This document shows positions 34,194-34,634 of a stretch of 64,000 nucleotides of DNA, in pieces (the stretch's first letter is position 1; each line of letters begins with the position of its first letter). The notes under the pieces were generated by a model, which was not told the origin of the DNA, ran no database searches, and worked only from the letters and a program-made list of their open reading frames with translations. This DNA comes from a virus (lineage: Duplodnaviria > Caudoviricetes), in the IMG/VR virus record IMGVR_UViG_3300001528_000425, positions 64,001 to 128,000 of that record; one strand, 5' to 3'. The position numbers and the translations under genes are program-made.

Positions 34194-34607
34194 TGAATGA
34201 CTTAACTCGAACCTAGACTAACGGAAGGTCCAATACTGATCCAGATGGATCAACTCTCATATTCTATCGACCTACGTAATCGAATATAGAGGTAGCTTCG
34301 TACGTGTCTCCGTAAGCAAATAATCTCCCAACCAATTATATAGGTTGGATGAGGATTATTTACCTACTCGGACACGTACGAGTTTGGTGCTACCAAAATT
34401 ACTGCGACAGCTTAATAACTGTCGCGCCACTGCCGGTGCGTTAACACCGTATATTGGTTGTAACTTGGTAACAAGATGATCGAAAGTTGAATTTGTGTAC
34501 ATAACACTCCTCCAGCTCAGTACCCTCTATGGCGTGCTACCGCCATAGAGGGTATGATCTTCTTTTACAATGGTAATTGCTTTCAGGACGAACAGTTAAG
34601 TCATTCA
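34194..34607 (-). ncRNA. Candidate large structured RNA B (~415 nt, unclassified)
   Basis: Perfect 14-bp terminal stem (34194-34207/34594-34607) enclosing many hairpins; early promoter immediately upstream. Confidence 0.65.
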
Positions 34608-34626
34608 TTAACTTATGTTCATCCTA

Positions 34627-34634
34627 GTAATGTA
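34627..34634 (-). promoter_or_regulatory. Early promoter variant TACATTAC
   Basis: Minus strand TTCATGTA-TACATTAC, nearly identical to the 4163 site. Confidence 0.65.

Follow-up and report, generated by a model that had tools for sequence, protein, structure and literature searches.

What does a closed, strongly folded element of phage DNA produce when it stands behind its own early promoter: a large non-coding RNA, a leader for the small reading frame downstream, or a product of another kind? The question is raised by a locus within a window of 64,000 nucleotides, the whole stretch of DNA analysed here, which corresponds to positions 64001–128000 of a complete 235,559-bp virus genome with direct terminal repeats (G000). 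This genome encodes split multisubunit RNA polymerase subunits, ~33% related to those of phiKZ-like phages, and it is classed from its sequence as a phiKZ-like jumbo phage. Searches of cultured phages with blastn and tblastn matched no relative. A related phage of 238 kb, G001, has a collinear gene order and a median protein identity to G000 of 46%. Chimallin was not confirmed in G000, and nucleus formation is not claimed for this phage.

Elsewhere the window carries a tRNA-Gln(UUG) gene (41231–41305, plus strand) and a gene for an 826-aa type II topoisomerase B subunit (29410–31890), the full-length matches of which are Staphylococcus jumbo phages at ~24% identity. A 203-aa gene (33017–33628) lies on the strand opposite to that of its G001 orthologue between collinear neighbours, which amounts to a single-gene inversion. 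At the non-coding end formed by the genome start (L172:121–160) there is a perfect palindrome, CTGT-N8-ACAG, which resembles a LexA box and also reads as an A-rich/TAC element with TATG 16 nt later.

The features of the locus, in window coordinates and with their basis in brackets, are the following:

34627–34642, minus strand: early (virion RNA polymerase-type) promoter, TTCA-N4-TACATTAC (the motif class recurs in the genome)
34594–34607, minus strand: 5' arm of P1, the end-to-end closing stem (fold and inverted repeat)
34572–34584, minus strand: conserved 5' motif AAAGCAATTACC, mostly unpaired (conservation among copies)
34507–34513, minus strand: Shine-Dalgarno sequence, in part base-paired to the initial codons (fold)
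34356–34502, minus strand: P0001, the open reading frame (ORF) of a 48-aa basic microprotein (ORF with ribosome-binding site (RBS), codon-position identity)
34298–34381, minus strand: rod, beginning at the final codons and the stop, with an invariant C-UAUA loop at its apex (found in every intact copy)
34194–34207, minus strand: 3' arm of P1 (fold and inverted repeat)
34520–34566, plus strand: P3, predicted antisense terminator with a U-rich tail, read through in the sense direction (terminator call)
34312–34345, plus strand: predicted antisense (middle-type) promoter, with an A-rich/TAA element at 34312–34323, a 15-nt spacer and TATA at 34339–34342 (motif)
34343–34566, plus strand: putative antisense RNA of ~220 nt, complementary to the whole ORF and its RBS (promoter and terminator positions)
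34073–34162, minus strand: 29-aa ORF, the deletion scar of a signal-peptide endolysin (orthologous site in G001)
34030–34069, minus strand: terminator-like hairpin after the lysozyme scar (seen in the sequence)

The architecture given in the preliminary description is largely borne out. The inverted repeat of 14 perfect base pairs, the hairpin of equal length (34521–34554) and the irregular rod of ~80 nt are all present, and the early promoter lies where it had been placed, its element at 34627–34634 standing 20 nt upstream of the stem on the minus strand. Its AT-rich motif class has about 40 members in the genome; nearly all of them lie on the minus strand, and many precede genes. The motif precedes the ATG by 128–142 nt in four of the eight groups of the module. 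Compared with dinucleotide shuffles, a check that the description had proposed, the fold reaches a z-score of −13.45 on the minus strand (−169.9 kcal/mol versus −102.9 for the shuffles) and −8.85 on the plus strand. A search of Rfam gave no match at the gathering threshold or with E up to 10, only chance hairpins, and the covariance models of ROOL, GOLLD, OLE and raiA gave none at either limit. The reported absence of tmRNA hallmarks is upheld by ARAGORN and Rfam, both negative for tRNA as well as tmRNA here, and by an ORF that has its own RBS and ATG. What had been described is, then, indeed a closed, strongly folded RNA without an Rfam family behind an early promoter of the virion RNA polymerase type. 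Two details need correction: closure of a domain by CCAATA/TATTGG occurs in the plus-strand fold but not when the minus strand, which is the one transcribed, is folded, and a 48-codon ORF takes in three of the hairpins that had been listed.

It is this ORF that overturns the proposal of a non-coding RNA. An RBS (34507–34513) and a 48-codon ORF under selection (34502 to 34356) lie inside the element and are found in all of its copies; of the other five frames none is consistently open. Across eight groups the nucleotide identity at the three codon positions is 0.62, 0.71 and 0.33, and pS is 0.75 versus a pN of 0.33; orthologue pairs likewise have pS above pN. The substitution pattern shows purifying selection on a protein of 47–48 amino acids, and the element is almost certainly a coding mRNA. 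Read-through of the stop codon was considered and rejected, as it is not conserved.

The protein is basic (pI 9–12) with a GRAVY of about 0, and its best 19-residue hydropathy of 0.06–0.69 indicates no hydrophobic segment and a non-membrane protein. Pfam, PHROGs, PDB sequences and the ESM Atlas contain no family for it. AlphaFold gives a helical model with a pLDDT of 77–84, and fold searches with this model returned nothing above noise (best Z 3.6, no E below 1). A faint sequence likeness to the N-terminal helix of L7/L12 (E 0.42 over 20 residues) is only a lead and has no counterpart among the fold matches listed. Judged by these searches, P0001 is a member of a microprotein family not described before.

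A self-search of the genome pointed to paralogues of the ORF. G000 contains four copies of the cassette, the other three being 47-aa paralogues at genome positions 39.0, 48.8 and 151.0 kb with 53–57% identity to P0001; G001 also contains four, and more variants occur in public metagenomes; P0013 and P0020, from phages of the G001 lineage, turn up in many public samples. A metagenome scan found no relative, and scans of viral contigs with short patterns gave chance matches only. The family is carried by only two related phage lineages, so its copies are not independent. Since two copies occupy orthologous sites in G000 and G001 and two do not, gain, movement or loss has affected the cassette as a whole. 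Some copies are damaged: in L132 (G001, about 2.4–2.75 kb) the stop codon and the rod are deleted and P1 is kept, and the variant P0023 has a frameshift after codon 21. Copies other than the one in the window are followed on their 3' side by unrelated genes or directly by terminators.

The copies align poorly by sequence and share one order of elements. Intact copies, 350–425 nt long with fold z-scores from −8 to −16, all consist of P1, the mostly unpaired 5' motif, P3, the RBS and ORF, the rod, a 3' part that varies and, at the end, the second arm of P1. P3 is in each of them a perfect hairpin of 14–16 bp. The sequences of P1 and P3 are wholly different between copies, and in a swap test each arm paired best with its own partner in 8/8 cases; for P1 the pairing energy is −21.6 kcal/mol with the own partner versus −5.9 kcal/mol with a swapped one. 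The same test detected no partner specificity for a helix between the spacer and early codons (2/8) or for a hairpin of the Shine-Dalgarno sequence (1/8), and these helices near the RBS are also weaker. Outside the rod, the 3' part varies from 84 to 163 nt and has no sequence in common between copies. The element is a self-contained gene cassette, for which the evidence shows a selected protein combined with 5'–3' pairing through P1 behind an early promoter motif, in four copies per genome in two phages.

How far the fold governs translation can be judged from the energy required to open the RBS. In the full-length RNA this amounts to 11–18 kcal/mol, and removal of the 5' arm of P1 or truncation from the 3' end hardly alters it. 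Local occlusion of the RBS, 7–13 kcal/mol, lies within the range of ordinary genes of the genome (median 8.9 kcal/mol). As the opening energy changes little on truncation and the local occlusion is ordinary, a strict translational lock is not claimed. Directly 3' of P1 a U-rich run is present in four groups of the G001 lineage (L129, L135, L136 and L137), and the window copy has no such tail. In the G001 lineage the folded cassette might as a whole work as one giant terminator in front of the endolysin or other genes.

The conserved 5' motif resembles, on the sense strand, the −24 element of phiKZ middle promoters, from which it differs by two mismatches in 7/8 groups; such a match occurs at a background of 0.6% per intergenic position, and no TATA stands at the right distance from the motif. 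It may be a sense middle promoter from which a shorter mRNA lacking the first arm of P1 would start, it may be a site for a phage DNA-binding factor, or it may act in the RNA as a standby or protein-binding site. A palindromic operator composed of the two conserved elements was also considered and has little support outside the modules.

The second conserved element lies in the rod and, read on the plus strand, has the layout of a promoter directed against the ORF: an A-rich block, TAC or a variant of it, 15 diverged bases and TATA. The TATA is invariant in 8/8 groups, the exact TAC-N15-TATA is present in 4/8 with near variants in the remainder, and a 5-nt A-rich block is equidistant in 6/8, the identity in the 15-nt spacer falling to 35%. 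In phiKZ, the middle promoters contain AAanTTACc at about −24 (PMC4666361, PMC8244752), and the late promoters have TATG at the start site (PMC4666361, PMC7598289, PMC8244752); which form of the polymerase reads the middle promoters is unsettled (PMC4666361). The antisense element has one or two mismatches to the phiKZ middle motif, 22–23 nt from the end of TATA, in 4/8 groups and three in the others. The locus in the window has the weakest element, with TAA in place of TAC and three mismatches to the phiKZ motif. Transcription from it would start at about 34343–34345 and would end at P3, which is called as a plus-strand terminator (34520–34555). In 8/8 copies the tail of P3 contains more T when read in the antisense direction (mean 6.0 versus 2.75). 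The RNA predicted from these positions is 220–228 nt long in all groups, and an antisense RNA over the ORF is quite likely to exist.

Independent information on this motif comes from ordinary genes. In a search for gapped k-mer pairs upstream of non-early genes, from which the modules were excluded, TAC-N15-TATA was the top non-terminator pair in G000, with 10 regions versus 1.5 expected (p 4e-6, as the best of many motifs tried) and at a spacing of 15 only. Upstream of G001 genes the enrichment was not significant (3 versus 1.1). The motif precedes RNA polymerase subunits, virion proteins, DNA polymerase and UvsX, which have middle or late functions, and is a candidate for the middle/late promoter of this phage. 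Some genes begin only 14–20 nt beyond it, so that transcription would start at TATA or immediately behind it. Examples in the window are located at 46280 and 59586 on the plus strand.

The A-rich/TAC element doubles, however, as the pairing partner of the last codons, and its conservation could reflect the rod. Conservation of the element is 0.60 when anchored on the partner of the stop codon versus 0.54 when anchored on TATA; as both anchors conserve it equally well, this register test does not separate a promoter from an RNA structure. In the window copy and the copy at 151 kb the distance from the A-rich block to TATA is kept and the partner of the stop codon is 17 and 25 nt off, which favours a promoter. 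At window 3793–4172 a further early gene of 71 aa (3830–4042, minus strand), with no PHROG match, an early promoter and a 5' hairpin, has the same antisense promoter-like element facing it just past its stop codon and no long rod. It possibly represents a second family under antisense control; the matching site in G001 lacks it.

Taken together, the reading that we favour, with some reserve, is that of an early microprotein gene which is later silenced by a cis-antisense RNA and is organised like a type I toxin-antitoxin locus. The virion RNA polymerase would first read the cassette from the early promoter and so provide an early dose of the protein, from an mRNA that is compact, protected at its ends and probably long-lived. 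With the onset of middle transcription the promoter in the 3' rod would fire on the opposite strand and yield the ~220-nt RNA ending at P3. This RNA would pair with the RBS and the whole ORF, block translation and probably lead to decay by RNase III. The protein would most likely be an early effector of host takeover that is harmful if it persists, and the cassette, working in the manner of a type I toxin-antitoxin locus, would serve as an infection timer. Host inhibition by the protein is a tentative proposal, to which we give slightly less than an even chance.

Several known loci are organised in a similar manner. In Escherichia coli, the Sib RNA covers the whole ibs ORF together with its RBS. 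The ibs/Sib and hok/Sok loci reside on chromosomes or plasmids, occur as paralogues, some of them broken, use host sigma-70 promoters and encode membrane-peptide toxins. As in ibs/Sib, the predicted antisense RNA of the cassette spans the whole ORF and RBS; unlike in both systems, the cassette has phage-specific promoters and a protein without sequence likeness to their toxins. With hok/Sok it shares ends of the mRNA that fold back together, the hok mRNA having an end-to-end fold-back (PMC6733600).

A parallel in individual features is found in aapA/IsoA of Helicobacter pylori, where a small ORF lies in a folded mRNA with long-distance 5'–3' pairing and a cis-antisense RNA, in several chromosomal copies (PMC5416894, PMC6733600). 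AapA1 is a toxic peptide of 30 aa, the Shine-Dalgarno sequence of which is freed by 3' processing (PMC5416894, PMC6733600), and the sense–antisense duplex of aapA1/IsoA1 decays by RNase III (PMC5416894). The cassette resembles it in the small ORF within a folded mRNA, the 5'–3' pairing, the several copies and the predicted cis-antisense RNA. It differs in that its protein is 47–48 aa long, basic and non-hydrophobic, truncation is predicted not to free the RBS, and sense and antisense transcription seem to rely on phage promoters of different temporal class. Of the usual features of type I toxin-antitoxin loci, the ORF under 60 aa with its own RBS and the 5'–3' fold-back of the mRNA are found in the cassette, and the hydrophobic membrane peptide is not. 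Since no membrane peptide is encoded, and both the toxicity and the antisense RNA are predictions, the cassette is not filed as a type I toxin-antitoxin system.

Antisense transcription as such is known from jumbo phages. In AR9, late promoters drive antisense RNA over phage genes (PMC5312081), and antisense transcripts from late or middle phage promoters are found in AR9 and phiKZ (PMC5312081, PMC10914365). Unlike those transcripts, which are scattered and uncharacterised, the present ones would belong to a cassette that recurs in the genome and combines a closed mRNA with its own terminator and a conserved microprotein, and the literature searched contained no cassette with this combination.

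The strongest of the alternatives, which we nevertheless hold to be fairly unlikely, is a structured mRNA without antisense control. P1 would stabilise the mRNA or, with a U-rich tail, end early transcription ahead of the downstream gene, and the invariant UAUA loop and the 5' motif would be recognised in the RNA by a protein, which may be the encoded one, or by a nuclease. Every conserved element is compatible with the sense fold as well, the register test is neutral, the protein is basic, and the U-rich tails of the four G001-lineage groups come right after P1. The absence of such a tail from the window copy speaks against it, and it leaves unexplained the U-tail of P3 on the antisense side in 8/8 copies, the N15 spacing enriched upstream of ordinary genes and the rod-free gene with a facing motif.

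A true type I addiction module would use the same parts differently. The folded mRNA would serve as a stable store that is mostly silent, and the antisense RNA would be a short-lived antidote dependent on continued middle transcription, so that after an infection aborted by host defence beyond the early stage, or after loss of the phage genome from a carrier cell, the protein would kill or arrest the cell. End-to-end pairing, paralogues, an overlapping antisense unit and broken copies such as L132 and P0023 match hok/Sok and aapA/IsoA (PMC5416894, PMC6733600). On the other hand, the protein has no hydrophobic segment and no locked-then-activated form is predicted, the opening of the RBS being nearly indifferent to loss of the P1 arm or of the 3' end, and we consider the module quite unlikely. 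Just ahead of it in our estimate, and likewise unlikely, stands the broader idea that phiKZ-like jumbo phages have a family of type I-like cassettes wired to two-stage transcription, with a stable early mRNA for a new non-membrane effector and an antidote RNA that needs middle transcription, and so act as both a timer and a dead-man's switch against aborted infection.

The original view of a large non-coding or dual-function RNA, with the RNA as the main product, is very improbable. It agrees with the very stable fold, the early promoter and the conserved unpaired motifs, and several hundred nucleotides of multibranch RNA with paired ends recall ROOL, GOLLD, OLE, raiA and retron non-coding RNA. 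Unlike ROOL, GOLLD, OLE and raiA, however, the cassette has a selected ORF filling its core, and it has no Rfam match. The ORF is the best-conserved part and its synonymous sites are saturated, and the 3' part outside the rod, as described above, shares neither length nor sequence between copies. As to retrons, a terminal inverted repeat of the a1/a2 kind is present in the 14-bp P1; no RVT_1 match for a reverse transcriptase was found in the genome, and the neighbours of the cassette are unrelated small genes.

The preliminary description had also proposed a leader controlling the 29-aa peptide. At the orthologous site G001 encodes a 244-aa lysozyme with a hydrophobic N-terminus, and in the 29-aa ORF an MKK-hydrophobic start has been fused, in a different frame, to the final codons of that lysozyme; in the other frame the window matches the lysozyme C-terminus at 10 of 12 residues (E 2e-6). 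The peptide is an out-of-frame remnant of an endolysin, and with this deletion scar the leader hypothesis loses its target. A tblastn search found no full-length homologue of the G001 lysozyme elsewhere in G000, so lysis must use another enzyme. The hairpin beyond the scar is the probable end of the primary early transcript. A leader or attenuator for the downstream gene, be it the 29-aa peptide or the endolysin at the orthologous locus, is the least credible reading, since, even though the G001 copy precedes an endolysin unsuited to early expression and has a U-tail at P1 there, the cassette is intact beside a pseudogene scar, other copies precede unrelated genes or terminators, and P1 does not cover the downstream RBS.

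For the discovery of non-coding RNAs the locus is a warning that an "intergenic" element which folds strongly and has no Rfam match may turn out to be a small gene. Middle/late promoters are a class said to resist bioinformatic prediction (PMC7598289), and TAC-N15-TATA offers a candidate for it in an uncultured phage lineage. How early genes are shut off and what the many tiny early genes do are open questions for jumbo phages (PMC13282480). The cassette would provide a concrete, testable mechanism, in which an early mRNA is followed by a middle-phase antisense RNA, present four times per genome and built around a new microprotein family.
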